The notes below the pieces were generated by a model, which saw nothing but the letters and a program-made list of their open reading frames with translations, had not been told where the DNA came from and did not search any database. The position numbers and the translations under genes are program-made. From Bacillus pseudomycoides DSM 12442 (GTDB lineage: Bacteria; Bacillota; Bacilli; Bacillales; Bacillaceae_G), in assembly GCF_000161455.1 (NCBI RefSeq), contig NZ_CM000745.1:2699496-2723495 (forward strand): 24,000 bases of DNA, written 5' to 3'. Positions 3,001 to 16,451 of the stretch are shown one piece after another (the first letter of the stretch is position 1; every line of letters begins with the position of its first letter).

Positions 3001-3451
3001 TCAGCCATTTCCGCAAATTGACCGCGAAGTATTTCAGGTTGAGGAGAATGAGGAAGTCACTGTGGAAAGGTTTGCTGGTATCCAGATCAATGGCCGTTCG
3101 CTGTTTGGTAAGATGACGAAGTACGGCTGGAGTCGTGGATCGGTTCAAGATGCCGGTGTATATTATACATTCTATAAAGAAGATACTCGCGCCGGACTAG
3201 GGGCGGAGCTTGCGTTTGAAGGGGCACCGGTTGGATATGAAGGTGAGGAGGATGTGTGCGTTTTTGAAATTCAATTTTACAAAGCAGGCACGGTGAGCCG
3301 CGGTTCATATGACTACGACGAAATTGATCATGAGAGACGCGTTTTACCGAAGCAAGTATCGGAACGCTTTTTCAGTGAAATTTTATATGATATAAAACGG
3401 GCAACAGAATCGAATCTTGGCCGTGATGAAAACTGGCGCAGCAAGCGATAA
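23..3451 (+). CDS. Large (1142 aa) DUF4132-type protein with HEAT-like repeats (YehI/MolR-like)
   Basis: Uninterrupted 3.4-kb ORF with GGGAGG..AGAGG purine-rich SD just upstream of ATG 23. Has HEAT-like helices (KKVRTAAVELL, VVRENAMQTLL, KQVRNAAKEAL). C-terminal third (NPILQQFAISLIWGEY ... WSRGSVQDAGVYYTFYKE) fits my recollection of DUF4132. Same size and position as E. coli yehI relative to yehLMPQ. Family assignment is by recall only. Confidence 0.75.
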   Translation: MAVSTYQLFQHLNMTGAQEELALRYLQTRDEEVLKHIEQTTIRENKRSDFAWQFMNDFRKTYKKDPVFFRLFYHLLEDQLLNVLLVRFSYMSFPDIKVYFEKSGLSFDRLVVFACKYLTNLSRSVNEADVFLRQLIRENPKYIEEQLQVITGQQKLLLLLVMLDADYERFLPYRSLLEEELEEHAEYILRLSGAEEKIEAAQRYVRGEAVSKVFAGSSLPDFTWQQIFRMYPHSDVARRYMELLVKCSVKNFMNYAISHVSHTLEQSGNYKKTKSFYAQLYETTRDLCEQFGISEERFFAYRLTQHHLGVVDFDRVYEYQLLLRMVEEQPEFVQRTLQYLSQSHYLFVSMLLAEKGYELHRNKVREEFLTVVLQTKSSDIRGTYRDYLLGTLSFEDMKQWFESSKFRNNYWRMPVLEIALLWDIEEAAKREATLTLQLGKGYNYSLYELLQRYAAMENSPEQVLEDLLTYGLSMEKLVSYSIEQASGHSEKRDKATEALVRLFVKERAYVKGEFPEYSADERIFILDELAKDNAVQTRDLLIQSLGDSSKKVRTAAVELLTKDTEAAEDVAKELNHKKKVVRENAMQTLLYYKTDKYTKLVQEALQEKKNASLTEKFAPLLGDGELEGASGSIEALCTRILTPQKRNALVQWIGFEPQIRLRDSDTIADAMIPLAYFQQYVSDSVIEKKEVAEAISAALNEQDLKENIQAIYQLWVSQGAESKKRGILSLYGIYSDDEMAMQLKKQIDEWALGMRGAIAAAAVQALALSQSHIGLMSIHAMAFKYKHKQVRNAAKEALSLAAKTRGITEEELEDQLVPDLGFNKRGEKTIDYGSRTFTAYLTPNLKIELKTGEGKRIKSLPKPNAKDDAEKAEEAKAELSSIKKQLRTMITMQTQRLETALSLNRYWSQNTWKSLFVENPILQQFAISLIWGEYKEGKLLAMFRYMEDGTFNTIEEEEHELTPDTVIGLIHPLELSEDERELWKEQLEDYEVTQPFPQIDREVFQVEENEEVTVERFAGIQINGRSLFGKMTKYGWSRGSVQDAGVYYTFYKEDTRAGLGAELAFEGAPVGYEGEEDVCVFEIQFYKAGTVSRGSYDYDEIDHERRVLPKQVSERFFSEILYDIKRATESNLGRDENWRSKR

Positions 3452-3466
3452 GAAAGGAACTGACAT

Positions 3467-4573
3467 ATGCAGTCTATTAAACCATTAATGGAAGAATTAT
3501 ATGAAATAGAATTGAATGCGTTAGAAGCGAATGATTCGTTTCCGAAACCACCTAACTGGCGATTGTCACCGCGTGCCGTTCGGACGTTTATTATTGGACA
3601 AGAAGAACCGCTTCTTTTAGAAGGAAAAGAAGTGGAAATTAGTCGTAAGTTTTATGGTAATGATGCGCTTGTGGAACGAGCAATTGTCACATTAGCAGGA
3701 AACCGAGGACTTATGTTAATCGGAGAGCCAGGAACAGCAAAGACGATGCTAAGCGAGCTGCTTTCTGCCGCAATATGCAGAAATAGCCGTAACACTGTGC
3801 AAGGAACAGCTGCTACGATGGAAGATACGATTAAGTATTCGTGGAACTATGCACTTCTTCTTGCGAAAGGGCCTGTAAGGGGGGCGCTTGTGCCAGGACC
3901 TCTCTTTGTTGGGATGGAACAAGGGATATTAACTAGATTTGAAGAATTGACTCGCTGTCCGCAGGAAGTGCAAGATTCATTGATCAGCGTTCTGAGCGAT
4001 AAAGTACTAAATATTCCGGAGTTTGGGGAGCAAGGAATTCTTACAGCTAAGCCTGGATTTAATATTATTGCGACGGCTAACACACGAGATCGCGGTGTGA
4101 ATGAGATGAGTAGTGCATTGAAGCGTCGTTTTAATTTTGAAACGGTGCATCCGATTAAGGATGTAAAGCTTGAAGCAAAAATAATAGAGTCACAAGTAAC
4201 GCGCTTATTAGGAGCATCAGGCATCACACCCAAAGTGGATGAGACGGTTGTTCAGCTGTTAGCGACTGTTTTTCATGAACTACGGGAAGGTGTAACTGCT
4301 GAAGGAAAACGAATCGATCAGCCATCTTCTGTTATGAGTACTGCAGAAGCAGTATCGGTATATTATCAAAGCGCAATGGATGCGTATTATTATGGAAGCG
4401 GACAAGTGAAGATGGATGCGCTTGTTCGGTATTTATCGGGCACAATTGCGAAAGAAAACAAGGATGATTTAGAAAAGCTGCGCAGTTACTTTACAAGCAT
4501 CGTTAGGGCGCGAGGTCAAGTAGGAGGAGAGGTATGGAAGTCGTTTTTCGAAGCTCGCAATCAGCTGAAGTAA
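3467..4573 (+). CDS. MoxR-type AAA+ ATPase (AAA_5 / YehL-like)
   Basis: 368 aa. Walker A GEPGTAKT; Walker-B-like ILTRFEEL; sensor-1 IIATANTRD; arginine-finger region SALKRRF. Starts 15 nt after the upstream stop. Confidence 0.85.
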   Translation: MQSIKPLMEELYEIELNALEANDSFPKPPNWRLSPRAVRTFIIGQEEPLLLEGKEVEISRKFYGNDALVERAIVTLAGNRGLMLIGEPGTAKTMLSELLSAAICRNSRNTVQGTAATMEDTIKYSWNYALLLAKGPVRGALVPGPLFVGMEQGILTRFEELTRCPQEVQDSLISVLSDKVLNIPEFGEQGILTAKPGFNIIATANTRDRGVNEMSSALKRRFNFETVHPIKDVKLEAKIIESQVTRLLGASGITPKVDETVVQLLATVFHELREGVTAEGKRIDQPSSVMSTAEAVSVYYQSAMDAYYYGSGQVKMDALVRYLSGTIAKENKDDLEKLRSYFTSIVRARGQVGGEVWKSFFEARNQLK

Positions 4574-6846
4574 ATGCATTGTTTCAAAGAGCTTACAATT
4601 TAGATCACAATGTCGTATATGTGCCGATTCGCCATCATAGTCCTGCGTGCTCTTTTCATGTACAAAAGATCGTTAAATTCTATAAACCGGATGCGATTCT
4701 TATAGAAGGACCGATAGATTGCAACCCTCTTATTCCGCATATTGTGAGTGCAGAAAGTGAGGCTCCAATTTGTATATATTGCAGTTATGATGATAAAACG
4801 GATGTGCTTGAAAGAGGAGAAAGTGGAAAGTACCGTGCGTACTATCCCTTTCTCGACTATTCACCGGAACTTGTCGCGCTGCGGGAAGGAGCTGCGCGCA
4901 ATATTCCAGTTTCATTTATTGATCTTCCTTATAAAGAATATTTGTTTGCAACGAAAAATGAGGAAGAGAATGGGAAGTATGACGAGCAATATTTCCGGCA
5001 CAGTCAATATGTCCGTATGCTTTCGGAAAAAACGGGGTGCCGAAGCTTTCATGAATTTTGGGAGAAATACTTTGAGTTGCAAGGCTTTCATATGACAAGC
5101 GAGGAGTTTGTCCGTCAGCTCTTCGATTATTGTTATTATACGCGCGCGGACTATACGCAGGAGATGTTGACAGAAGACGGATGCGAAGCCAGGGAGATAC
5201 ACATGGCAAAGGAAATTGAAAAAGCGCGTAAAGTGTATGACAAGGTGCTCGTTATTACCGGAGGCTTTCATGTGAAAGGGCTTCTTGAATTGGAAGGGAA
5301 AAAGAAAAAGAAAAAGCTGTCCAAAAGCCCATTATCTAAAGCGTATGCCAAAAACTATCTTATGCCGTATTCCTTTTTGGAAAGCGATCAGATGCGTGGC
5401 TATGAGAGCGGTATGCCTGCACCTGCTTTTTACCAACATATTTGGGAGAACAGGGATGAAGCGGTAGCTGAGCAATTTATGATACGAATTGCTAGACAGC
5501 TAAAGGCAGAAGGAATATCAATGGCAGATAAGATTGAAGCTGCGCGAATGATACGTGAACTTGCACTGCTTCGGGGAAAGATGCAACCTGGATTGTATGA
5601 ACTGATGGATGCAGTGCGTAGTGCATTTGTGAAAGGTGAGATATTCTCGGCAGATAAACCTTTAACGCTGCTTCAGAAGAGTTTGCAAGGGACGAAGCGC
5701 GGAAAATTGTCAAAAGAAGCGGATGTGCCGCCGCTCGTGCATGATTTTCGTGCTTCTGTTCGTTCGTTTCGTCTTCCGGCACGTTCTACTGTACCACAGG
5801 AGACGATTCTTGACATATACAAGAAAGAAAGGCACTTGCGTTTAAGTCAGTTCTTTCATTGCCTCGCTTTTTTAGGAGTTCCGTTTTGCGAGAAGCTGCG
5901 CGGTCCGAACCTAGCTAGAAAGCAGAATATTAATCTTATACGAGAAACTTGGAAATATCGTTTCTCAGCGCAGGTGGAAAGTGCTCTTATTGATTTATCT
6001 GTGTATGGCGGAACGGTGAGAGAAGCCGCGCAGGAAATGCTAAGAGCAAAGCTGTATAAGGCGAAAGTGCGTGCGGGAGAGGTGGCTCTTTTATTGCTAG
6101 AAGCCTACTTAAGTGGTTTGTTTTCCGATTTCGCTATGTACAATCAGTTTATAGATGAAGCAATACAGGCGGATGGAGATTTTGCTTCTATGGCAGATTG
6201 TGCTTACTATTTATCACAAATAGAAAAAGAAAATCAGCAAGCGGATCATGCTAGACATAAAGCACTTTCGTTATTTTCTGTTTTAGATGGGGGCGAACCA
6301 GCAATTACTGCGGAAAAACTTATTGATTTGTATACAATGCAGCCTGCAGACCAGCAATTTATTGAAGCACTGGAGCTTTATTTGCAAAGGGAAAAACGAG
6401 AAAGCCAAGTAGAAGGGGCAGTATTTGGGCTGTTAACTTCTTTAGGGAAGCGGAAAATCGATGAGGTAATGCAAGTGGCAGAAGGATATTTTTATGGAAG
6501 TGGCGATATGCAAAAGCAAGCTCCGATATTTTTGAATGGTTTGTTTGCTGGCGCAAAAGATATCTTCTTATATAACGAATCGCTGCTTGACGGAATGTCT
6601 CATGTTCTAGAAGAACTTGATGAAGAGACATTTTTACAAGTATTGCCGCATTTGCGCCTCTTGTTCAGTCAATTCACGCCGCTTGAGGTGGATACGATTG
6701 CTAAACAGATTGCGCGGTTATATGGAGCCACAGAAGAAGTGATAAAAGAAGAAGCAATTTCCGAAGAAGTGCTGACGTATGCAATACAGTTAGATCGCAA
6801 GGCACGGGAAATTTTAATGAGACGGGGGCTAGAAGATGGAGAATAA
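4534..6846 (+). CDS. DUF5682-type protein (YehM-like), 770 aa
   Basis: Long ORF. AGGAGGAG SD at 4522-4529, 4-6 nt before ATG 4534. Overlaps the ATPase gene by 40 nt. Size and position match yehM/DUF5682 in AAA-DUF5682-vWA-SWIM clusters (recall). Confidence 0.7.
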   Translation: MEVVFRSSQSAEVNALFQRAYNLDHNVVYVPIRHHSPACSFHVQKIVKFYKPDAILIEGPIDCNPLIPHIVSAESEAPICIYCSYDDKTDVLERGESGKYRAYYPFLDYSPELVALREGAARNIPVSFIDLPYKEYLFATKNEEENGKYDEQYFRHSQYVRMLSEKTGCRSFHEFWEKYFELQGFHMTSEEFVRQLFDYCYYTRADYTQEMLTEDGCEAREIHMAKEIEKARKVYDKVLVITGGFHVKGLLELEGKKKKKKLSKSPLSKAYAKNYLMPYSFLESDQMRGYESGMPAPAFYQHIWENRDEAVAEQFMIRIARQLKAEGISMADKIEAARMIRELALLRGKMQPGLYELMDAVRSAFVKGEIFSADKPLTLLQKSLQGTKRGKLSKEADVPPLVHDFRASVRSFRLPARSTVPQETILDIYKKERHLRLSQFFHCLAFLGVPFCEKLRGPNLARKQNINLIRETWKYRFSAQVESALIDLSVYGGTVREAAQEMLRAKLYKAKVRAGEVALLLLEAYLSGLFSDFAMYNQFIDEAIQADGDFASMADCAYYLSQIEKENQQADHARHKALSLFSVLDGGEPAITAEKLIDLYTMQPADQQFIEALELYLQREKRESQVEGAVFGLLTSLGKRKIDEVMQVAEGYFYGSGDMQKQAPIFLNGLFAGAKDIFLYNESLLDGMSHVLEELDEETFLQVLPHLRLLFSQFTPLEVDTIAKQIARLYGATEEVIKEEAISEEVLTYAIQLDRKAREILMRRGLEDGE

Positions 6847-7942
6847 CATTTCTTTAAATCGCTGGCGTCTTGTTCTTGGGAAACATGCAGATGACCAAAT
6901 CACATTTCAGGAAGAAGACCCTGCATACAGAGCAATGGATGAGGTACTGGAGTTTTTGTACGAGAGAGAACGCGGAGAAGAACGCGGCGGGTCGTTGGAT
7001 CCCTCTCAGCTAACAGTGCCGACTTGGATTTCGAAAGTGCGGGAGTTATTTCCGAAAGAAACCATTGAGATTATGGAAAATCATGCGCTAGAAAAGTATG
7101 AATTAACGGCTCTATTGCAAGATAAGCAAACGCTTGAAAAAATGGAGCCGAATATGAATTTATTAAAATGCATTTTACAATTTAAAGATTATGTAAAACC
7201 GGATGTATTAGACACAGCTAAACGTATTGTAGCGAAAGTCGCTGAGGAGTTGCGGCGTAATTTAGAGCAAGAAGTGAAGCACGCATTAAGCGGTAGACCA
7301 GATCGAAATCGTTCTAGTCGCGTTCGCACGATGCGCAACTTTGATTTTAAGAAAACGATTCGAAAGAACTTAAAGCATTTTGACAAGGAAACAAACGCCA
7401 TTCATATTGAAAAACCGTACTTTTATGCTGCCACGAAGCACGTTAGCCCATGGCGTGTGATCCTCGCAGTAGACGAGAGCGGAAGTATGATTGATTCTGT
7501 TATTCATAGCGCAGTTATGGCGGGTATTTTTGCAAGCTTACCGACGATTAAGACAGATCTGTTCATCTTTGATACAGCTGTTGTTGATTTAACGGATCGT
7601 ATTGACGACCCGGTGGAAACGCTTATGAGCGTACAGCTTGGGGGAGGAACATATATTGCTCAGGCGCTGCGCTACGCAACGAATAAAATCGAGATGCCTC
7701 ATAAAACAATTGTCGTGCTTGTAACAGACTTATATGAAGGTGGCAGTTACAATGAAATGTACCGAGAAGCGATGAAGATTGTAGAATCAGGAGCAAAGCT
7801 GATCGTGCTAACATCTCTGGATCCGACTGCACAGCCTTTTTATGATAAACAGGCAGCTAAAAAAATGGCGGCGCTCGGTGCTCATGTAGCGGCGTTAACA
7901 CCAGGGAGGTTGGCACAATGGATCGCAACAATCATTTCTTAA
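6836..7942 (+). CDS. von Willebrand factor A (vWA) domain protein with MIDAS (YehP-like)
   Basis: 368 aa. MIDAS DxSxS as ILAVDESGSM, downstream GGGT (QLGGGTYIAQAL) and VLVTDLYEGG. Overlaps the upstream gene by 11 nt. Confidence 0.85.
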   Translation: MENNISLNRWRLVLGKHADDQITFQEEDPAYRAMDEVLEFLYERERGEERGGSLDPSQLTVPTWISKVRELFPKETIEIMENHALEKYELTALLQDKQTLEKMEPNMNLLKCILQFKDYVKPDVLDTAKRIVAKVAEELRRNLEQEVKHALSGRPDRNRSSRVRTMRNFDFKKTIRKNLKHFDKETNAIHIEKPYFYAATKHVSPWRVILAVDESGSMIDSVIHSAVMAGIFASLPTIKTDLFIFDTAVVDLTDRIDDPVETLMSVQLGGGTYIAQALRYATNKIEMPHKTIVVLVTDLYEGGSYNEMYREAMKIVESGAKLIVLTSLDPTAQPFYDKQAAKKMAALGAHVAALTPGRLAQWIATIIS

Positions 7943-9552
7943 ATGTTCTTTCCTCTATTGATGAAACATACTTAATTGCCATGTCTAACAAAGGAACATA
8001 TAAGAGAGCAATGAAGGATTTGGCCGTTGTATCAAATGTCAAAATGGACGTAGAAGAGGGTGCAGCGCAAATACATCTTGATGACGGAATTACTGTAACG
8101 TTTACGGGTGATATACGCAGTTACTCTTGTAGTTGTGAAGCCCGTTCGATTTGTAAACATGTCATTATGGCTCTATTAGAAGCAAAGAAGATGTACGAAG
8201 GTGAAGAGAACATAAAAGTTGATTTCTCTGCTCTTTTGAATGTGAACGTTCGCAATATTGTCTCCGAAAAAATGTGGGCTGAAATGATGTTTCGCGAAAC
8301 ATTTCAGCAAAAGTTTGTTTTAGAAGAAGAGGGGGCTTTAATTGCCACTTTCCGAGAAGAGAATATAACAGTTCGCTTTCTAACAGCTGAATCGGTAGCG
8401 GCTGCGATCTGTACGTGCAAAGCAGAGGGGATATGCCGGCATAAGGCGGAAGCGGTATATTGGTATCAAAAAGAGAAGGGAATCTCGCACGAAACGAAAC
8501 AGATGCATCCTCTTATCATTGCGCCGGATAAGCTATCTATTTTCAAAGAAATGATCGAGCAAATTGTTCACTTTGGATTAACACGCCTTACCGAAAATAC
8601 AATCTATGAAATAGAACAACTTTCTGTAAAAGCACGTTCTTTGAAACTCGCAAAGTTAGAGAATTTATTTCGTAAGCTCGGGGCGGATATTGGGCTATAT
8701 CGGATGAAGCATGCATCTTTTCAAATGGCATCTTATCGGCAAACGGTGTCCGCGATTTATGAACACATTTTGTTGTTGGAACGCCACCATCTGCAAGAGA
8801 GTCCGTTTCGTTCGGAATATTACGAAGTTCCACCACTTATTTTGCATGCTTTTGGTGCATCTGGCTGGCAAACGAAGTCTGGTTATGTTGGTGTGACGTA
8901 TTATTTCTATAATCGAGAACAGGAAAAGTGGATTACATACACACAGTCGCGCCCCATGTTTTATGAAGGGAGCAGCACAACTCCTGAAGAACTCCATGAA
9001 AGGCAAGTTCCATGGGGAATTGCAGGGAAAGGATACGAACTATCTCGTTCATCTGTCCGATTGAAGCAGGCAAAACTTAACGTCGATTTTCAATTGTCAT
9101 CTAGCTCACAGACAGTAGGAGAAGTGGAAGGAAAAACAAATGTGGCAGAGTGGCAATCTCTCTTTTTAACCTCATGGGAAGAACTATTAAAAAAAGTAAA
9201 AGAGCAAAGGTTAGAGGCAAATAAACAAGGAATCTTTTGTATCGAAGTTGCTGAAATAGGAGAATGGAAGTTTCAGAAGCAAGAACAAAAATGGATCATA
9301 CCTCTTATCGATAAGAATGGGAAAACATTGCAAATGCAAATGATGAAACGACCAGAAAATGAGCGAATGATTCGACTTGTAAAAATATATATGGACTCGT
9401 TGCATATAAAGAGAATGCTAGTTCATCCTTATCAGGAAGGAACAAAGCTCGTTGTTACACCTATCATTTTATATACAGAAGCAGGAGAGATTATAAATAC
9501 TACACTGAGTGAAGGGGGAACGTTCTATGATCGAGTTAATGCGCCTAATTGA
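7918..9552 (+). CDS. SWIM zinc-finger protein with two SWIM motifs (YehQ-like)
   Basis: 544 aa. GGGAGG SD 8 nt before ATG 7918. Two CxCx5CxH motifs: CSCEARSICKH (nt 8128-8160) and CTCKAEGICRH (nt 8413-8445). Overlaps the vWA gene by 25 nt. Confidence 0.8.
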   Translation: MDRNNHFLNVLSSIDETYLIAMSNKGTYKRAMKDLAVVSNVKMDVEEGAAQIHLDDGITVTFTGDIRSYSCSCEARSICKHVIMALLEAKKMYEGEENIKVDFSALLNVNVRNIVSEKMWAEMMFRETFQQKFVLEEEGALIATFREENITVRFLTAESVAAAICTCKAEGICRHKAEAVYWYQKEKGISHETKQMHPLIIAPDKLSIFKEMIEQIVHFGLTRLTENTIYEIEQLSVKARSLKLAKLENLFRKLGADIGLYRMKHASFQMASYRQTVSAIYEHILLLERHHLQESPFRSEYYEVPPLILHAFGASGWQTKSGYVGVTYYFYNREQEKWITYTQSRPMFYEGSSTTPEELHERQVPWGIAGKGYELSRSSVRLKQAKLNVDFQLSSSSQTVGEVEGKTNVAEWQSLFLTSWEELLKKVKEQRLEANKQGIFCIEVAEIGEWKFQKQEQKWIIPLIDKNGKTLQMQMMKRPENERMIRLVKIYMDSLHIKRMLVHPYQEGTKLVVTPIILYTEAGEIINTTLSEGGTFYDRVNAPN

Positions 9553-9805
9553 TGAATTGGAAGAAGTTCTAGATGAGATGCTTGTCTCAGGAGCAGGGAC
9601 TGTCCCTCTTTCCTTTTTTCAGGATATAAAACGAGAATGCGAAAAGTATGGTCTTTCTTATGCTGCCACGCAGGTGCTTATCATAGAGGAAGAGCGAAAC
9701 AAGGCCCGCTTTCTTCATAAAGAAGAAACAAACAAACTGACAGAAGCATTTTGTAAGTTGCAGGAATATATTCAAGTTATAAAGGCTGAAATGCTGCATT
9801 TATAA
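9527..9805 (+). CDS. Small (92 aa) predicted helical protein of unknown function, last gene of the operon
   Basis: GAAGGGGGA SD at 9511-9519 then ATG 9527 (the ORF track starts at GTG 9509). Overlaps the SWIM gene by 26 nt. No recognisable motif. Confidence 0.5.
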   Translation: MIELMRLIDELEEVLDEMLVSGAGTVPLSFFQDIKRECEKYGLSYAATQVLIIEEERNKARFLHKEETNKLTEAFCKLQEYIQVIKAEMLHL

Positions 9806-9930
9806 ATAGCTGGGTTAGTAGATGAATATTGAATTTAAATAAAAAGGTTTTCGCTAGAAGTATGCTGAAGAAGAAACGAAAACGCTCGCAGTGGGGAGAA
9901 ATTGTACTGATTTTCCGAAAGTACTAATAA

Positions 9931-9959
9931 TTGCCAAAATATTAATTTGCAAGTATAAT
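9931..9959 (+). promoter_or_regulatory. Sigma-A-type promoter for the Y-RNA array
   Basis: TTGCCA (9931-9936), 17-nt spacer, TATAAT (9954-9959). Predicted start about 9966, roughly 25 nt before the first Y-RNA unit. Confidence 0.55.
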
Positions 9960-9991
9960 AATAGTAAGAACGATGAGTGATAAAAAGAAAA

Positions 9992-10132
9992 GGGCAGTGT
10001 AGGAAAGAATTTCTTCGCCTTTCACGCGGTAGGTCGCAGGTTCGAATCCTTGCCTTCCCTGATGTTTTATTAACATTAGGGGAGTAGCTCAGTTTGGTAG
10101 AGCAACATATTGAGTCTTTCCGCCTATCTCCC
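9992..10132 (+). ncRNA. Y RNA, YrlA-like (unit 1) with circularly permuted tRNA-like module
   Basis: Terminal stem GGG(C)AG..UA..GGAAAGA (9992-10008) pairs with UCUUUCC..UA.CU.CCC (10115-10132). T-arm with GGTTCGAATCC (10039-10049). 7-bp acceptor-like helix CUUCCCU/AGGGGAG capped by hairpin AUGUU-UUAUU-AACAU. D-arm TAGCTCAGTTTGGTAGAGCA (10085-10104). T6 tract follows. Lies next to rsr. Confidence 0.78.
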
Positions 10133-10160
10133 TTTTTTATAATTCATATTTAATAGATTT

Positions 10161-10285
10161 GGGCAGTGTAGAGAAGGATTTCTTCGCTTTGGGTGCCGTG
10201 TGTCATGGGTTCGAATCCCATCCTTCCCATTTTGGAAGGTAGCTCAGTGGTAGAGCAACGTAATGAGCCTTTTCGCTTATCTCCC
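10161..10285 (+). ncRNA. Y RNA, YrlA-like (unit 2) with circularly permuted tRNA-like module
   Basis: Same architecture as unit 1. GGG(C)AG..UA..GAGAAGG (10161-10177) pairs with CCUUUUC..UA.CU.CCC (10268-10285). Perfect T-arm AUGGG-UUCGAAU-CCCAU (10205-10221). Acceptor-like CCUUCC/GGAAGG closed by a short loop. D-arm TAGCTCAGTGGTAGAGCA (10240-10257). Confidence 0.78.
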
Positions 10286-10306
10286 AAATCTTTAAACATT
10301 ATATAT

Positions 10307-10481
10307 AACAGGAACAGTGTAGATAGCCCATGCTTCGTTTGCTAATATTAAGTGCTATAGATTCGATCCTAATCGATGCGGAAAGGTCCGCACCGAATTC
10401 GTACTTTTCTTTGATTCATAACACTAAGGTAGGAGTTACTTCGTCATATAGGGATTGTGTTTGTGGGATTCGATTCCTGTT
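10307..10481 (+). ncRNA. Third, divergent Y-RNA-like/structured RNA unit
   Basis: Perfect 8-bp closing helix AACAGGAA (10307-10314) / TTCCTGTT (10474-10481). Shares the CAGTGTAG motif (10315-10322) with units 1 and 2. Two T-loop-like GATTCGATYC motifs (10359-10369, 10465-10477). Internal hairpin GCGGA-AAGG-UCCGC near 10377-10390. No clear D-arm. Confidence 0.4.
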
Positions 10482-10512
10482 TTGAATATTTCTTAAGTGT
10501 TAGGAATGAGTG

Positions 10513-10545
10513 AAAAAAGGCAACGTATATACGTTGCCTTTTTTA
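10513..10545 (+). terminator. Rho-independent terminator closing the Y-RNA array
   Basis: A-tract, palindrome GGCAACGTAT/ATACGTTGCC (10519-10538), then T6 (10539-10544). Confidence 0.8.
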
Positions 10546-10557
10546 TTTGTATTTCAA

Positions 10558-10581
10558 CCAGCAGTGTCAAAAAATCTCTGG
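10558..10581 (+). promoter_or_regulatory. Mini-hairpin in the rsr leader that mimics the Y-RNA terminal stem and overlaps the SD
   Basis: CCAG(C)AG-UGU...AU-CU-CUGG. Pairs 10558:10581, 10559:10580, 10560:10579, 10561:10578, bulged C10562, then 10563:10577 and 10564:10576. Shares the strings GCAGUGU and AUCUC with units 1 and 2. G10580-G10584 is the SD for ATG 10594. Confidence 0.35.
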
Positions 10582-10593
10582 GGGTAGATCATA

Positions 10594-12063
10594 ATGTCAA
10601 AGTTTAATCATTCTTCTCAAGGAAGCCGTCAAACATATACAAAAGAGGGCGGAAAAGCTTATAAAATGTATGATAAAGATAAATTAGTTACGATGGTATT
10701 AACATCTTTCTTTAATGAGCCAAAATTTTATGGTAATAACAGCGAAGAATTAGTTACTACTGCAAAACAAATCATGGACAGAGACCCTAAATTTGTTGCA
10801 AGTTTAGCAGTCTATGCACGTGAAGTGTTCTACATGCGTTCTGTTACACATGTATTAGCAGTGGAACTTGCAAACCACCCTGAAGGTCGTAAATATGCTC
10901 GTCAAACAGTTTCTCGTATTGCGCAGCGTCCGGATGATGTAACAGAAATAATGGCATATCAATTAGGGGTATATGGTCGGAAAAATCCAATTCCAAACTC
11001 TTTGAAAAAGGGGTTAGCAGATGCCTTTTCTACATTTGATGAATATCAATTAGCAAAATACAATCGCACAGGAAAAGACGTTACATTGAAAGATGTATTC
11101 CGTTTAGTAAGCCCATCTGCCAAAAAAGGAACAGAACGTTACGAACTTTATAAACGTTTGTTAGAAAACACACTGCAAGTACCATATACATGGGAAACAC
11201 AGCTTTCTCAAAAAGGAAACAAAAAAGAAGTGTGGGAAGAATTAATTGATAGCGGAAAAGTGGGTTATATGGCCTTACTTCGTAACCTTCGCAATATCGT
11301 AAATTCAGGTGCCTCAAATATTGATACAGTATATAACATTCTTCGCGATCCTGAGCGAGTAAAAAAATCAAAACAATTACCATTTCGCTTTTTTTCAGCA
11401 TATCGTGTTGTGCAAGAAAAATTACCACAAGCAGGAAGCGAATTATTAGATATATTGAATGACGCAATTGAAGCATCTGTTACAAACATGCCGAGATTAT
11501 CAGGAACAACATTTATGACAGCAGATATCTCAGGATCTATGACATGTTATCCTGTTTCAAAAGATGGGAGTGTTAAATGTGCAGATATTGCTACACTAAT
11601 GATGGCAATGGCACACTCCTTCTGTGATAATTCTATTACATCTGTATTCGCAACTGATTTCAAAGCGATAAATGTTTCTACCCGTTCTGGTATTTTAGAG
11701 AACATGAACACATTTTTATCAGAAGTTAATAAACATGGATATGGAACAAACTTACATCTTTCTATCAAATATTTATTAGATCACAAAATCAAAGTTGACC
11801 GCATTCTTGTCTTCTCTGATGAGCAAGTGTACGGAGATAGGTATGGAGACAATTCTTCACAAATTCTTCTTGAAACATATCGTCGTGAAATGAATCCTGA
11901 TGTTTGGGTTCACTCTTTCAATTTAAATAGTTACGGTAATCAACAATTCGTAGGAGAGAAAACAAATTTAATCGGTGGCTGGAGTGAAAAATGTTTGGAC
12001 TTCATTCATTATGCGGAAGAAGGAACAGGTTCCCTTATTTCAGCTATCGAAAATTATCAATAA
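10594..12063 (+). CDS. rsr: Ro60-related protein Rsr (TROVE domain + C-terminal vWA/MIDAS)
   Basis: 489 aa. N-terminal TROVE-like sequence (KLVTMVLTSFFNEPKFYGN, FVASLAVYAREVFYMRSVTHVL, YMALLRNLRNI, LPFRFFSAY). C-terminal MIDAS TADISGSMT. Adjacent to the Y-RNA-like genes. Confidence 0.9.
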   Translation: MSKFNHSSQGSRQTYTKEGGKAYKMYDKDKLVTMVLTSFFNEPKFYGNNSEELVTTAKQIMDRDPKFVASLAVYAREVFYMRSVTHVLAVELANHPEGRKYARQTVSRIAQRPDDVTEIMAYQLGVYGRKNPIPNSLKKGLADAFSTFDEYQLAKYNRTGKDVTLKDVFRLVSPSAKKGTERYELYKRLLENTLQVPYTWETQLSQKGNKKEVWEELIDSGKVGYMALLRNLRNIVNSGASNIDTVYNILRDPERVKKSKQLPFRFFSAYRVVQEKLPQAGSELLDILNDAIEASVTNMPRLSGTTFMTADISGSMTCYPVSKDGSVKCADIATLMMAMAHSFCDNSITSVFATDFKAINVSTRSGILENMNTFLSEVNKHGYGTNLHLSIKYLLDHKIKVDRILVFSDEQVYGDRYGDNSSQILLETYRREMNPDVWVHSFNLNSYGNQQFVGEKTNLIGGWSEKCLDFIHYAEEGTGSLISAIENYQ

Positions 12064-12376
12064 TTTTTGTTACACTCTTTTTATTTAGAAGACGGAATAA
12101 TTAGGATAACGGCAGGTCTAGTTAACCATGATGCAATAAAAAAGAAACTCATAATCTTTATTTTAAGAAACCAATGATTTTCTAATGAAAGCAGGGTTAC
12201 CTGGAGCTGCTCGTCCATTTCTATGATTTGAGCCGTTAGCTAATCTTGGCGAGGATAGATTAACTACAAAAGCAACTGGATAGTAACAAACAATAAATTG
12301 CCTACTGATAAGATAAAACTAGTTTATGAAATTTTAATAAAGCATGCTGTTAATTCCAGTATTAAGGAGTTTGAAA

Positions 12377-12721
12377 ATGAAAATAAATAATAGTGAGTAT
12401 GGTGGTTTTGTCGTTTCAAAAAATATTCTGGCTGGAAAACCAGTTAGATATTCATTTAGACAAGAAAGTTCTATCCCGCAATTAAATGGCTGGAATTTGT
12501 ATGCTATAGATGATACTGATGACTATGTGAATCATGCAGAAAATTTTATCATCTTAAACGCGGAATCTATTTTTAAAATCGTCCCTGTAATGTTTGAGAT
12601 TTTTGAAGCTCCTTTTGGAACGGATCTATGCTGGCTATATGAAGAAGGAGTTCATATTGGATTTTATGATGTAGTCGCCGATAAAGAAGTGACCATTAAT
12701 GAACTTATAAAACAAAACTAG
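12377..12721 (+). CDS. Small hypothetical protein, possibly DUF2185/Imm33-like
   Basis: AAGGAG SD at 12365-12370, 6 nt before ATG 12377 (the ORF track starts at 12344). Family call is weak recall only. Confidence 0.5.
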   Translation: MKINNSEYGGFVVSKNILAGKPVRYSFRQESSIPQLNGWNLYAIDDTDDYVNHAENFIILNAESIFKIVPVMFEIFEAPFGTDLCWLYEEGVHIGFYDVVADKEVTINELIKQN

Positions 12722-12770
12722 TTTTTTCATGTAGCTCTATTTTATAAGTTCTTTAGTAGATGACAAACAA

Positions 12771-12815
12771 GCCCCTTATAAGCCCCTTCCAACCCCCTTA
12801 TAAACCCCTACCAAG
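12771..12815. repeat. Four tandem 11-bp iteron-like direct repeats
   Basis: GCCCCTTATAA / GCCCCTTCCAA / CCCCCTTATAAA / CCCCTACCAAG. One copy per helical turn, about 185 bp upstream of the DnaD-type replication gene. Confidence 0.55.
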
Positions 12816-12999
12816 TAATAAATCATTAAATAAACAAAAGAAAAAACAACTACAAGAACTACTATGAAAAAATAAAAAAGTAACATTCTAGTACTAGTAA
12901 AAATTATAAAATAAATCCACCAAATTCCTGCCTGCAATCCTATATATAGAAGGAGTAACCAATTCTATATTTACCACTAAAAAGGCGGGAGGAAGAAAC

Positions 13000-13872
13000 A
13001 TGGGAGTATACCGGAGTGTACAGGTGAATTTTTGGCAAGATGAGTTTGTACTTGATTTAACGCCAGAGGAGCGCTATTTTTATATGTATTTGCTGACATG
13101 TTCGAAGACGACACAATGCGGGATTTACTCACTGCCACTACGTTTGGTAGAGATGGAAACGGGGTATAACCGTGAAACTGTTGAGAAGTTGTTGCAAAGG
13201 TTTGTTGCGTATGGAAAGATATTATATGACGCGAAAACGAAGGAGTTATATGTTCTAAATTGGTTACGTTATAACCCTGTTACAAATACGAACATAGAAA
13301 AGTGTGTGTTACGTGAGTTAAAGACTGTGAAAAATAAAGAGTTTGTACATATGTTTCTTCAAAGATGCCTCGAGGAAGAGTTGAATATTCCGTTATTGTT
13401 AGAACATTTCGGAATGCCAGTTGAAGTATCTGATGTGATTCCGCAAGAAGTTTTTCAAGGTTGTGCACAGGATGAGAAAGTAGAAGAAGTAGAAGAAAAA
13501 GCGAATCCAGGTAGCAGTGTATTCACATTTTATGAACAAAACTTCGGTAGTTTGTCATCATATGCAGCGAAGGAATTAAGTGAATGGGTTACGGATTTGT
13601 CGGAGGAGCTTGTACTAAAGGCACTTCAGATTGCCTATGAAAATAATAAGCGGACGCTTGCTTATGTGAAGGGGATTTTACGAGATTGGCATGGGAAAGG
13701 ATATACGAAGCTCAGTGAAATAGAGGAAGCAGCAGCGAAGTTTCGAAAGAAGGAGCCGTCTATTCTTTATGAGACGGAGAAGTTTTTGGAGGAGTGTGAA
13801 GAGTGGAAGAAGAATGTTCCGTCTGAGGAAGAATTACAGAAGTTCTTGCAGGAACAAGGGTGGCAGCCGTGA
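13000..13872 (+). CDS. Phage/plasmid replisome organiser with DnaD-like C-terminal domain
   Basis: 290 aa. GGGAGG SD. N-terminus VQVNFWQDEFVLDLTPEERYFYMYLLT is typical of the phage replisome-organiser N domain. C-terminus FYEQNFG..ELSEW..ALQIAYENNKRTLAYVKGILRDWHGKG is DnaD-like. Confidence 0.85.
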   Translation: MGVYRSVQVNFWQDEFVLDLTPEERYFYMYLLTCSKTTQCGIYSLPLRLVEMETGYNRETVEKLLQRFVAYGKILYDAKTKELYVLNWLRYNPVTNTNIEKCVLRELKTVKNKEFVHMFLQRCLEEELNIPLLLEHFGMPVEVSDVIPQEVFQGCAQDEKVEEVEEKANPGSSVFTFYEQNFGSLSSYAAKELSEWVTDLSEELVLKALQIAYENNKRTLAYVKGILRDWHGKGYTKLSEIEEAAAKFRKKEPSILYETEKFLEECEEWKKNVPSEEELQKFLQEQGWQP

Positions 13873-14057
13873 GTATTCAACATATCGAGGCGGAACAAAT
13901 GGTGTTAGGATCTTTGCTTCTTGATGGTGAACTAATTAAGGAGTGTCACCTGATTGAGCGGTACTTTTCTATGGGTGTGTATCAAACTATATTCAATTCG
14001 ATACGAAAAATAAAGGAAGACGGGCTGCAGTTAGACAAGATAATTTTACTTAAGTAG
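13869..14057 (+). pseudogene. Truncated replicative DNA helicase (DnaB N-terminal fragment, about 62 aa)
   Basis: GTGA start/stop overlap with the DnaD-like gene. IEAEQMVLGSLLLDGELI is the conserved DnaB N-terminal signature. The ORF stops after about 60 codons, whereas DnaB-type helicases are several hundred residues. Confidence 0.7.
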
Positions 14058-14116
14058 ATTAACTTGCATGCTAGTTTTGGATGGAGCTTGAAGAATTAGA
14101 AAAAGGAGATCTTAAA

Positions 14117-14584
14117 ATGATAATAAACGATGCCGTTTTTGGTGAACTTGAATATAATTACGGATGGGTAAGGTACACTACTATAACGTTTTGTGGAAAG
14201 GAAGCTAAGATAGCGTTAATGGTAGATGGCGAAGAGGAAAGTGGATTTGATAAAGAACAATATGAATCATATGATTCATTGATGGAAAATTGGGAGCAAG
14301 TGCAACAAAGTATTTTGCAACCGATTTTAGACTATTATAAACAAAAAAGGTATGAGCTTGGTTATGATATTGAATTTAATGAACATTATCCTTTAATTGA
14401 AACAACTGATCAACTTCTTAATAGGATAAGTTTAGTTGGAATTGTTGTTCCGTATGCGGGTATTTTTGAAGGTCGAGGGATCGGACTCACCTTCGACTGT
14501 ACATGGGATATGGAAAATGGTTTAGGTCTTCTTCTTATAAATGAAAAGGTAACCGAAGTGGGCTATCAGGATGTTGCGATTTGA
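14117..14584 (+). CDS. Hypothetical protein, immunity-protein-like (family uncertain, possibly DUF6985/DUF2004-type)
   Basis: AAGGAG SD 8 nt before ATG 14117 (the ORF track starts at 14081). Small, acidic and cytoplasmic. Sits at the head of the immunity-type gene array. Confidence 0.55.
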   Translation: MIINDAVFGELEYNYGWVRYTTITFCGKEAKIALMVDGEEESGFDKEQYESYDSLMENWEQVQQSILQPILDYYKQKRYELGYDIEFNEHYPLIETTDQLLNRISLVGIVVPYAGIFEGRGIGLTFDCTWDMENGLGLLLINEKVTEVGYQDVAI

Positions 14585-14684
14585 ATAGGGTGAAGTAATA
14601 TAAAGATAGCTTAGAGTTTTCTTTTAAAATATGAAATTGATGAAGAAAAGAAGACGCTCAATTATATTATGTGTAAAGAGTTTT

Positions 14685-14717
14685 AATTTAAATTTAAATT
14701 TAAATTTAAATTTAAAT
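14685..14717. repeat. Hexanucleotide microsatellite (AATTTA) x 5.5
   Basis: Perfect AATTTA repeats from 14685, running into the ATG at 14716. Confidence 0.95.
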
Positions 14718-15234
14718 GAAGCATGAGGTGAATGAATTGTTTACAAAAGATACATACATTAGCTCGGTAAAAGAAAATCTTGAAAAAAATTCAGAAAGGT
14801 TGATTCATAATATAAGGGAAATTCTTAATTTTAATTATTACAGTAAAATAGAGTTAGTAGATTTTATGATTTTTATCGGATCGTTTGACCTTTCTATCAT
14901 GATGTTTTCTATGAATAGAGAAGCAAGTGAGGTTTTTTACGAAGGAAACGATAGCAGTGTTTTTGCAGGAAGTCATGAATTACTCGAACGTATATCATAC
15001 TATAACCTTTCTTATGATAAATCAGACGAGTTCTGGGAGTTTTATGAAGAAAACGATGAGATCATATCGGAAGATGAGGAAAAAATCATTGTGGAATGGT
15101 TTATTGATTGCTGGAATAAAGCAAATGGAGGAAGTATAAAATTACCTGCCTATTGTGGTTTTCATGATGCTAATCAATCATTTGACTTGCAGAAAAATAT
15201 ATGGGTTTCTGATGAGGAAAAGTGGTGGGATTAA
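14716..15234 (+). CDS. Hypothetical acidic protein (172 aa), immunity-protein-like context
   Basis: ORF with Bacillus-like codon usage. The real start may be TTG 14737, 6 nt after GAGGTG (14725-14730). No recognisable motif. Confidence 0.5.
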   Translation: MKHEVNELFTKDTYISSVKENLEKNSERLIHNIREILNFNYYSKIELVDFMIFIGSFDLSIMMFSMNREASEVFYEGNDSSVFAGSHELLERISYYNLSYDKSDEFWEFYEENDEIISEDEEKIIVEWFIDCWNKANGGSIKLPAYCGFHDANQSFDLQKNIWVSDEEKWWD

Positions 15235-15383
15235 TACGCAAAAGATAACGGCTTGTTTTTTAGAGTATCACAGAATAGAGAAAAATGATTTTTACTGAAA
15301 GAGGATATGTCTAACGAACTTATGCCGATGATACACAATCAAAAAGAGATGGTGAAAATAATTTACCAAGGAGTGGAACTACG

Positions 15384-15812
15384 GTGGAGATTGAAGTGAT
15401 TCATGAAAAATTATCATTAGAAGAGTTAGAAGCTTTTGAGGAAAAACATCAGTTGCGATTACCGAAATATTATAGAGAGTTTTTATTAAAATATAATGGA
15501 GGCTATCCAAAGGCAAGTATGTATAAAATCTCTGATGATGCAGGAGAAAGTGTATTAAATATTTTCTATGGAATTGGGAGTATGTATGATAATTTGGATA
15601 AAATAATAGATTTTTTTGATGATCTTTTAGATATGGGATTTATACCAATTGCAGATGATCCTGGCGGTAACCAAATATGTTTGGGGATCAATGAGGAATA
15701 CTGTGAAAAAATCTTTCATTGGGCTCATGATGAAGAGCACGACGGTATGAAAAATATGTATTTTTTAGCCAATAATATAAATGAATTTCTTGATTATTTA
15801 TATGAGGAGTAA
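15384..15812 (+). CDS. SMI1/KNR4 (SUKH-1) family immunity-type protein
   Basis: 142 aa. Typical SUKH signature LPKYYREFLLKYNGG plus later FIPIADDPGGNQICL. AAGGAG SD upstream of GTG 15384. Confidence 0.85.
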   Translation: MEIEVIHEKLSLEELEAFEEKHQLRLPKYYREFLLKYNGGYPKASMYKISDDAGESVLNIFYGIGSMYDNLDKIIDFFDDLLDMGFIPIADDPGGNQICLGINEEYCEKIFHWAHDEEHDGMKNMYFLANNINEFLDYLYEE

Positions 15813-15881
15813 AGTTAAACAGTTATATAGCCTTCAGGGGAATAGAATAAAAATTCATGTGTATAAAGGGGAATTCAAAGA

Positions 15882-16451
15882 ATGATTCATTATGGAGAGC
15901 TGTATTATGACCATTATAGTAAATACCTAGGTGAGCCAATCGACCGGGAAGTATTTAAAAATGGTGAGGACATGCCGAGTATACAAATTTTGAAATATGA
16001 AAATGTATTTGAAGAATGTCTTGTTTTTCATACACTTGGGTTTAGTAGATATGAAGAAATAGTAGGGGATAATGTTGAAGTTTCCATGGTAGTTGATGGG
16101 GCATTTCGTAGTGTAGGATATATTTTGGCAAATGCTTTATTTTATTGTATAGCGAATCGAATAGAAATAGGTCGTGGAACAGCAATTAGTGGCATTGAAA
16201 GTATTGATAAGTCTTTTGTTCGAAAATACAATAAAAGTGCAGTTTACTTTACTGAACCGTTCGCTTTCCCAGAGGAATACAGCTATGTACTGACTGGAAA
16301 TGCAGAAAAGGATGGTAAAGTGTTGCTGGCATTTTTTATTTCGGAGTCGGAATATGAATATTTTCTAAAATACGGAACAGAGAAATTTGAGGAATTATTA
16401 GAAGAGAATCATGTGGATCCTTTTCATGTTAGCAGGGAGTCTATAAATTGA
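15882..16451 (+). CDS. Suppressor-of-fused (SUFU)-like domain protein, immunity-type
   Basis: 189 aa. HYSKYLGEP...IQILKY...FHTLGFS pattern recalled from bacterial SUFU-domain proteins. AAAGGGGA SD. Confidence 0.65.
   Translation: MIHYGELYYDHYSKYLGEPIDREVFKNGEDMPSIQILKYENVFEECLVFHTLGFSRYEEIVGDNVEVSMVVDGAFRSVGYILANALFYCIANRIEIGRGTAISGIESIDKSFVRKYNKSAVYFTEPFAFPEEYSYVLTGNAEKDGKVLLAFFISESEYEYFLKYGTEKFEELLEENHVDPFHVSRESIN

Follow-up and report, generated by a model that had tools for sequence, protein, structure and literature searches.

Two paralogous YrlA-type Y RNAs of a divergent sub-family upstream of a Ro60 gene in Bacillus pseudomycoides

An intergenic region of about 600 nt, previously blank, in the genome of Bacillus pseudomycoides DSM 12442 encodes two Y RNAs of the YrlA type, and possibly a third. 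The region lies in a 24,000-nt stretch of contig NZ_CM000745.1 (hereafter the window, to which all positions refer), and the RNAs, their presumed signals and rsr are all on its + strand. Unit 1 (9988-10136) and unit 2 (10157-10289) precede rsr, the Ro60 orthologue (10594-12063; Pfam TROVE, E = 2.4e-40; vWA_Ro60, E = 1.8e-8), whose start is 458 nt past the end of unit 1 and 305 nt past the end of unit 2. The units are a known type of element, YrlA-type Y RNAs belonging to a sub-family that scores below the Rfam threshold and carries a variant motif at the Ro site. We consider it very probable that they are paralogues working with the Ro60 encoded downstream, on the strength of their sequence, fold, covariation and synteny and of plausible transcription signals.

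YrlA RNAs have been defined by a position within 4 kb of Ro60 on the same strand, by a 5' GNCGAAN0-1G motif, by stem-loops of the T, acceptor-like and D kinds, frequently joined by a fourth ('V'), by a conserved YUAY, and by nucleotides of the tRNA tertiary structure that include the covarying Levitt pair (PMC4201824). Chen 2014 listed 355 of them in 254 bacteria, often several per locus (PMC4201824). The tRNA-like domain of a YrlA has since been solved (6CU1; Wang 2018, 10.1101/312249), and most YrlAs have been likened to circularly permuted tRNAs with closed acceptor stems; their variable regions are long and contain short duplexes, and descent from dimeric tRNAs has been discussed (10.1101/312249). 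Published features also include Rsr binding, pseudouridine at position 55, dihydrouridine and a tRNA fold (PMC4201824; 10.1101/312249).

Both units run from a T arm through a closed acceptor hairpin to a D arm, all enclosed by a bulged stem that joins the 5' and 3' ends. A sequence-only reading of the region had proposed this order (T arm, acceptor 3' strand, cap, acceptor 5' strand, D arm), and it can be read directly from both copies. The bases that make tertiary contacts in tRNA (U8, A9, A14, G15, G18-G19, A21, C48 and U54...A58) are present in each. That reading also had the ends opening where the anticodon arm would be; the permuted order is indeed of this kind, but a remnant of the anticodon stem persists, 2-3 bp in which bases 5' of the variable loop pair with bases 3' of the D stem, together with a hairpin with a 7-nt loop that corresponds to the published V element.

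In unit 1, the 5' strand of the outer stem P1 (AAAAGGG-C-AG, 9988-9997, with the bulged C at 9995) pairs with 10128-10136 (CTCCCTTTT) in what is presumed to be the Ro-binding stem. The motif AGUGUAG (9996-10002) marks the junction of P1 and the internal loop, occupying the place of the published GNCGAAN0-1G, and is followed by the 5' strand of the second helix, P2 (GGAAAGA, 10002-10008; partner TCTTTCC, 10115-10121). The V hairpin (CGC/GCG, 10016-10028) closes on a 7-nt loop, CUUUCAC, that resembles an anticodon loop. Next come the variable loop AGGTC (C48 at 10035) and the T arm GCAGG-TTCGAAT-CCTTGC (10031-10053), both read from the sequence, with a bulged U in CCTTGC. The closed acceptor hairpin (10054-10084) has 7 bp, CTTCCCT (10054-10060) with AGGGGAG (10078-10084), and its cap (10061-10077) is extended by 6 bp, GATGTT/AACATT, around the loop TTATT; the extra hairpin already reported for the unit 1 cap is therefore real, as is the short loop of unit 2, which measures 6 nt. 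U8-A9, the D arm GCTC-AGTTTGGTA-GAGC and A26 occupy 10085-10104 (TAGCTCAGTTTGGTAGAGCA), and A27-C28 (10105-10106) pair with G10029-T10030 as the anticodon-stem remnant.

Unit 2 is laid out in the same way. The 5' strand of its P2 (GAGAAGG, 10171-10177) pairs with CCTTTTC (10268-10274), and its V hairpin (10185-10197) has the 7-nt loop UUUGGGU. Within 10185-10221, the sequence and the covariance model described below place CGT (10197-10199), the variable loop GTGTC and the T arm ATGGG-TTCGAAT-CCCAT, and the string GGTTCGAATCC is common to unit 1 (10039-10049) and unit 2 (10208-10218). The closed acceptor (10222-10239) consists of 6 bp, CCTTCC with GGAAGG, around the 6-nt loop CATTTT, and is followed by U8-A9, the D arm GCTC-AGTGGTA-GAGC and A26 (10240-10257; TAGCTCAGTGGTAGAGCA) and by ACG (10258-10260), which pairs with CGT at 10197-10199 as the anticodon-stem remnant. 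The D loop of unit 2 is 2 nt shorter than in the string that had been given for both units. The GGG-C-AG/CT-CCC part of P1 with its bulged C is identical in the two copies, as claimed, but the stem continues for another 4 bp in each: AAAA/TTTT in unit 1 (9988-9991 with 10133-10136) and ATTT/AAAT in unit 2 (10157-10160 with 10286-10289), the latter being compensatory relative to the former. It is because of these pairs that we extend the units from their earlier cores (9992-10132 and 10161-10285) to the limits given above. Beyond the four additional P1 pairs, the bulged U, the V hairpins, the anticodon-stem remnant and further compensatory changes between the copies had all escaped the earlier description.

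Constructs of the two units that lack the Ro stem and have an open acceptor cap are both called as tRNAs by ARAGORN, and therefore every tRNA arm must be present. The program also calls a 'tRNA-Pro(tgg)' in the native sequence at 10160-10230, the 5' half of unit 2; we rejected this as a gene, as the call takes the Ro-stem strand for an acceptor and the V hairpin for an anticodon arm. Neither unit is a canonical tRNA gene: the Rfam tRNA model reaches 17.5 bits (9993-10060) against a cut-off of 29, and the T arm precedes the D arm.

Searched in E-value mode over 1.9 kb, Rfam YrlA (RF02553) is the best family for both units, unit 2 scoring 44.7 bits (E = 3e-8) and unit 1 33.2 bits (E = 6.6e-5). 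The metazoan/Deinococcus-type Y RNA family (RF00019) does not match the units even at E up to 10. We collected 93 loci encoding relatives of the Ro protein, and a regular-expression scan found the arrangement of T arm, hairpin and D arm beside Ro in many of them. On its 5' side the shared core consists of a stem, a bulged C or U, AG, UGYA, a helix of 6-8 bp and (G)UUACUUCG; on its 3' side, of the other strand of the 6-8 bp helix, (G)CYUAUU, CU and the 3' strand of the outer stem. A covariance model, R1, was built from 11 homologues, none of them from Bacillus. It matches both units over their full length (unit 2, 103.9 bits; unit 1, 94.6 bits, 1-142; E about 1e-23 to 1e-26) and gives no further match at E < 0.1 elsewhere in the window.

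Across the 93 Ro loci, R1 yields 201 matches at E <= 0.001, mostly one or two per locus and up to five in some, and 197 of them lie on the strand of the Ro gene. The best 150 matches are all within 3428 nt of Ro (median 298 nt) and on its strand, 124 of them upstream and 26 downstream. Some partial matches in other loci are of the dimeric-tRNA type. None of 14 related Ro loci has a YrlA match that reaches the Rfam gathering score, and we therefore regard the whole group as a divergent branch missed by standard annotation: a large sub-threshold set, on contigs related to Clostridia, Bacillus and other groups, that escapes standard pipelines. Structurally, both units have what characterizes YrlA RNAs, namely proximity to Ro on the same strand, the T-acceptor-D order, the tertiary bases and the terminal stem. 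At other loci, a genuine tRNA gene sits among the Y RNAs of the array (L036, 4524-4596; probably also L073, 8244-8315), and a match to the Rfam DUF3800-VIII RNA motif (45.4 bits) adjoins the Y RNAs of L027 (2718-2781).

Covariation in homologues had been named beforehand as a point on which the sequence-only reading should stand or fall, and every helix covaries, as does the tertiary Levitt pair. In a model-based alignment of 145 distinct sequences (A5), 93.5% of cells are paired, compared with 60.8% after column shuffling and 41-49% after sliding partners by 1-3 columns, and changes on both sides occur at 36 of 36 pairs. The fraction of paired cells is 97.0% for P1, 95.4% for P2, 99.1% for the T helix, 95.1% for the acceptor helix and 98.2% for the D helix, with double changes at all 8 pairs of P1 and at all 16 pairs of P1 and P2 together. 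The small V hairpin is paired in 75.6% of cells (59 double changes at its third pair) and the anticodon-stem remnant in 67.9% (42-45 double changes). As an independent check, 33 sequences were aligned with MAFFT alone and given to RNAalifold, which predicts P2, exactly as the 7-bp helix of the sequence-only reading, and the T, acceptor and D helices, with compensatory changes at 19 of the 23 predicted pairs. MAFFT shifts the 3' strand of P1 by up to one column either way, and P1 was accordingly judged on the model-based alignment. Together with the adjacent Ro60 gene and the YrlA match, this covariation bears out the proposal of a circularly permuted tRNA mimic of the YrlA type.

Among the 94 full members of the family, the Levitt pair is G15:C48 in 53 and A15:U48 in 31, and a separate covariation count has 90.6% of its cells paired (C:G 52, U:A 34). 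UA is found at positions 8-9 in 85 of the 94, a variable loop of 5 nt in 87 and a V loop of 7 nt in 71; 56 of these 71 have the U33 and R37 of an anticodon-like loop (U at position 2, a purine at position 6). The bulged pyrimidine of P1 is conserved, and the junction motif varies (CAGUGUA in 23, CAGUGCA in 18, UAGUGUA in 14, UGUCGUA in 10 and UGCCGUA in 8). Distant members carry GNCGUAG, one base off the published GNCGAA. Two further pairings were tried and rejected. A pseudoknot between AGUG and the UACU of the UUAC motif is contradicted by the Bacillus units, which have UUUC with no compensating change. Extension of the V hairpin to a 5-bp 'anticodon stem' through an invariant UU gives 63-70% pairing and no double change; the anticodon-stem remnant is preferred because of its double changes.

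Several results weigh against this assignment and have to be set beside it. At the gathering threshold, Rfam reports nothing in the 24-kb window, and the YrlA scores of both units fall short of the gathering score of 69. The 5' part of neither unit contains the G-N-C-G-A-A of the GNCGAAN0-1G Ro-recognition motif. The A5 alignment on which most of the covariation is counted was itself fitted to the R1 model, and within it the V hairpin and the anticodon-stem remnant are less well supported than the other helices (76% and 68% paired). Thermodynamic folding by itself does not single out unit 2 (z = -0.25), and the folds supported by covariation lie 5-8 kcal/mol above the minimum free energy; given this ambiguity, we did not take thermodynamics alone as evidence. 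With regard to an effector, the 24-kb window contains no gene for PNPase or RtcB.

A sigma-70-type promoter-like site (TTGCCA, a 17-nt spacer and TATAAT, with 11 of 12 consensus matches) at 9931-9959, about 30 nt 5' of unit 1, is the sole + strand promoter-like site found in a scan of 9500-10700, and an intrinsic-terminator-like hairpin of 14 pairs followed by a T tract (10513-10544) separates the RNA array from rsr. This layout raises the question of whether the array acts in cis as a leader of the rsr mRNA, its structured RNAs and terminator forming an attenuator that sets Ro60 expression. The units do lie between the only good promoter-like site and rsr, the terminator-like hairpin is 50 nt before the rsr start codon, and the scan found no separate promoter-like site for rsr. 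However, the 26 of the best 150 family matches that lie downstream of Ro indicate that position relative to the reading frame is not conserved; the conserved parts, a closed stem of the Ro type and a tRNA fold, include no alternative pairing of terminator and antiterminator, and characterized YrlA relatives are stable Rsr-bound RNAs cut from precursors (PMC4201824). We regard a leader function as very improbable. We give almost no credence to the view that the units are functionless, decayed tandem (dimeric) tRNA genes, the D arm of each coming simply after the T arm of its predecessor. YrlA searches are known to pick up dimeric tRNAs falsely (PMC4201824), as some partial R1 matches elsewhere illustrate, and the ARAGORN call and the 17.5-bit tRNA match in the units themselves could be read in this way; yet no tRNA in the window exceeds the Rfam cut-off, and both units are kept in at least six Bacillus species, always beside Ro. 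What excludes decayed tRNAs is that a closed, covarying helix separates the T arm from the D arm and that P1 and P2 covary at every pair, which pseudogenes would not maintain.

It could also be argued that enzymes directed at tRNA, such as anticodon nucleases, RNase P/Z or the CCA-adding enzyme, are what the tRNA-like heads mainly serve, whether as decoy, sensor or substrate, and that Ro60 is no more than their chaperone. The acceptor of unit 1 is a true 7-bp stem with an extension, and a YrlA of Mycobacterium smegmatis with a 7-bp acceptor is cleaved by RNase P and has CCA added to it (PMC4201824); most members with a 7-nt V loop retain U33 and R37 in it, and several genes of polymorphic-toxin immunity types lie in the neighborhood. 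Against these points, the acceptor extension of unit 1 is fully helical, with neither a single-stranded leader nor an encoded CCA, the V loop differs in sequence between the units (CUUUCAC and UUUGGGU), the immunity genes and the upstream operon are not kept next to Ro in other loci, and no link was found between the RNAs and any toxin. A primary role of this kind seems improbable to us, and we favor Y RNAs that act with Ro60.

The two copies are 72% identical on the model alignment, and the way in which they differ is itself informative. A structural alignment reveals 10 double and 2 single compensatory changes, distributed over P1 (3), P2 (2 double and 1 single), the T stem (3) and the acceptor (2 double and 1 single); the D stem is the same in both, and no difference between the copies breaks the P1, P2, T, acceptor or D helix. 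The paired changes in P2 that had been reported earlier (GGAAAGA/TCTTTCC in unit 1, GAGAAGG/CCTTTTC in unit 2) are exactly as described, G-C to A-U, A-U to G-U and A-U to G-C. For P1, P2, T and acceptor, computed duplex energies make the within-unit helix 2.3-3.5 kcal/mol more stable than the stronger cross-unit combination, and the computed fold of a 335-nt precursor consists of two separate units. From these models we infer that the paired changes keep each copy self-complementary and would also reduce mispairing of one tandem unit with the other. At least six related Bacillus species have both copies with the features peculiar to each, always beside Ro, and so the duplication predates those species. 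In three loci (L001, 248-385; L005, 9517-9654; L084, 4564-4701) the copy at the unit 2 position has sequence like that of unit 1 around its variable loop and T stem (GTAGGTCGTGGG..., GAGCGACG), which suggests recombination or gene conversion between the paralogues; in L001, unit 1 is missing altogether.

By analogy with characterized systems, we propose that the array would be transcribed as one precursor from the promoter-like site at 9931-9959, ending at the terminator at 10513-10544 or partly reading through it, and that this precursor would be trimmed to RNAs of about 150 and 133 nt. The outer surface of Ro60 would bind the 5' strand of the bulged stem and stabilize the RNA, while TruB, Dus and similar tRNA enzymes may modify the L-shaped head. 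The head may further act as a docking site that tethers Ro60 to an effector, which is PNPase in Deinococcus, in Salmonella and, in vitro, for phage phiLo (PMC12135203), and may gate the access of other RNAs to the Ro ring. Binding of PNPase or tRNA enzymes by the units described here would be expected from the behavior of their counterparts in other species. Opening of the 7-bp acceptor of unit 1 by RNase P/Z, as in M. smegmatis, is a possibility on the same grounds, and one that we favor less because the acceptor extension is helical.

The closest comparison is with the YrlA of Salmonella Typhimurium (RF02553; 6CU1). As in that RNA, the units stand beside rsr on the same strand and have a terminal stem with the Ro site, the T arm, closed acceptor and D arm in order, near-invariant D and T stems, U8-A9, the Levitt pair, G18-G19 contacting the T loop, and a YUAY-like motif after the lower stem (UUUC in the window, UUAC in the family). 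Unlike it, they have AGUGUAG in place of GNCGAAN0-1G and score 33-45 bits against the cut-off of 69, carry a hairpin of 3 bp with a 7-nt loop inserted before the anticodon-stem remnant, and lie upstream rather than downstream of rsr with no rtcBA nearby. With YrlA/YrlB of M. smegmatis they share the presence of several Y RNAs upstream of rsr, which in that species are cut from one precursor, and, for unit 1, the 7-bp acceptor stem; the acceptor of unit 1 extends as a helix and not into single strands.

Yrn1/Yrn2 of Deinococcus radiodurans and Yrl1/Yrl2 of phage phiLo likewise have a bulged terminal stem, there bound by Ro, and lie upstream of the Ro gene, and the tether of Ro, Y RNA and PNPase in those systems is the working model that we share here by analogy. 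Those Y RNAs carry CGAA and have only a T-arm-like element or none, whereas our units have a full tRNA-like head. The features of the metazoan/Deinococcus-type Y RNA, a GGUCCGA/CGAA helix and an effector loop that is not tRNA-like, are absent from the units, and only the architecture of a bulged C, then 2 bp, then an internal loop is shared. Red algae and some archaea have circularly permuted tRNA genes that resemble the units: the half with the T arm comes first, the acceptor starts out closed, and it is at the anticodon stem that the ends come together. Those genes give functional tRNAs by way of a bulge-helix-bulge splicing-type motif, which the units lack; unlike them, the units have no full anticodon stem, and their conserved partner is Ro60.

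Between unit 2 and the terminator, 10308-10480 may be a third Y-like RNA in degenerate form. Conserved in 7 Bacillus loci, it begins in the manner of a Y RNA with ACAGGAA-C-AGTGTAG, and its ends can pair (ACAGGAA with TTCCTGT); a second GGTAGGAGTTACTTCG lies within it at 10428-10443, and a T-loop-like GGGATTCGATTCC stands at its end. We rejected it as a member of the family, as it reaches 11.6 bits with R1 even when filters are off and there is no covariation among the 7 Bacillus homologues.

In unit 2 and in some Y RNAs of other loci, the 5' half itself scores close to a tRNA, comprising the Ro-stem strand, AGUGUAG, P2, a small hairpin, the variable loop, the T arm and the acceptor 3' strand. 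Such halves are picked up by the Rfam tRNA model in other loci (L040, 4632-4699, 29.8 bits; L093, 6543-6602, 28.2 bits), and together with the ARAGORN call in the window they fit the published idea of an origin from dimeric tRNAs. The same model also matches longer stretches of 127-130 nt, at 47.4 bits in L093 (6643-6769) and 43.8 bits in L027 (2163-2292). The L093 sequence aligns as an acceptor, D arm and T arm in normal order around a 68-nt insert at the place of the anticodon loop. By eye, this insert contains the Ro-stem motifs closed as a hairpin, and the RNA would then be the opposite circular permutation of the units in the window. It is tempting to see here a distinct Ro-linked sub-family that still displays both halves of an ancestral tRNA dimer, including the opposite permutation in L093, although we think this unlikely. 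On such a reading the Ro-stem strand may be a former acceptor, AGUGUAG with P2 a degenerate D arm, and the hairpin with the 7-nt loop an anticodon-like arm. If this were true, the anticodon-like loop and the differing acceptor caps could recruit different tRNA-binding effectors to Ro60, and the paired differences between the copies would have been selected to prevent tandem mispairing.

The established picture of Y RNAs is unchanged by these results, which amount to good annotation and introduce no novel type of element. For a relative of the B. cereus group, they provide a firm annotation of a blank intergenic region with two Y RNAs, presumed partners of Ro60, and possibly a third. The substitution of AGUGUAG for GNCGAA, next to a Ro60 whose nearest solved relative is a phage protein, offers a natural variant for studying recognition between Ro and Y RNA, and the tRNA-like 5' halves and the relatives in normal order are relevant to the published proposal of a dimeric-tRNA ancestry for YrlA.

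Compared with solved structures, the rsr product is closest to the Ro60 of phiLo (9KOP/9L5Y; E = 4.9e-35) and more distant from Deinococcus Rsr (2NVO; E = 1.6e-4); phiLo is a Thermus phage, and a PNPase complex has been described for its Ro60 (PMC12135203). Identity of 94-97% to the corresponding proteins of Bacillus arachidis, B. bingmayongensis and their relatives places the window in a relative of the B. cereus group. We rejected a plasmid or phage origin of the locus, as neither it nor the units match plasmid and phage DNA collections and phage Ro proteins are at most 33% identical to the window Ro60. Open reading frames overlapping the intergenic region of the RNAs are all of 51 amino acids or fewer.

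Directly 5' of the array (23-9552) is a five-gene operon encoding DUF4132 with HEAT repeats, a MoxR-type AAA_5 ATPase, DUF5682, a CoxE-like VWA protein and a SWIM zinc-finger protein. L005 (Bacillus sp. Xin1) is the only other Ro locus with this operon, and L009 has just a DUF4132 homologue; we rejected the operon as a functional partner on this distribution, and it is probably not a conserved associate of Ro. The region 3' of rsr (12344-16451) holds small genes of polymorphic-toxin immunity types (Imm33, DUF6985, SUKH-1/SMI1-KNR4 and SUFU-like) and encodes a replication-type protein with DnaB_2; Imm33 and DnaB_2 come after Ro in five close Bacillus loci. In one further locus (L012), the gene for a Ro protein 57% identical to that of the window lies a few kb from SPbeta-like phage genes (YonJ_N, YonG_N) and has weak matches to the Y RNA model upstream, and from this context it follows that relatives of the Ro/Y RNA module also travel on Bacillus-type prophages.

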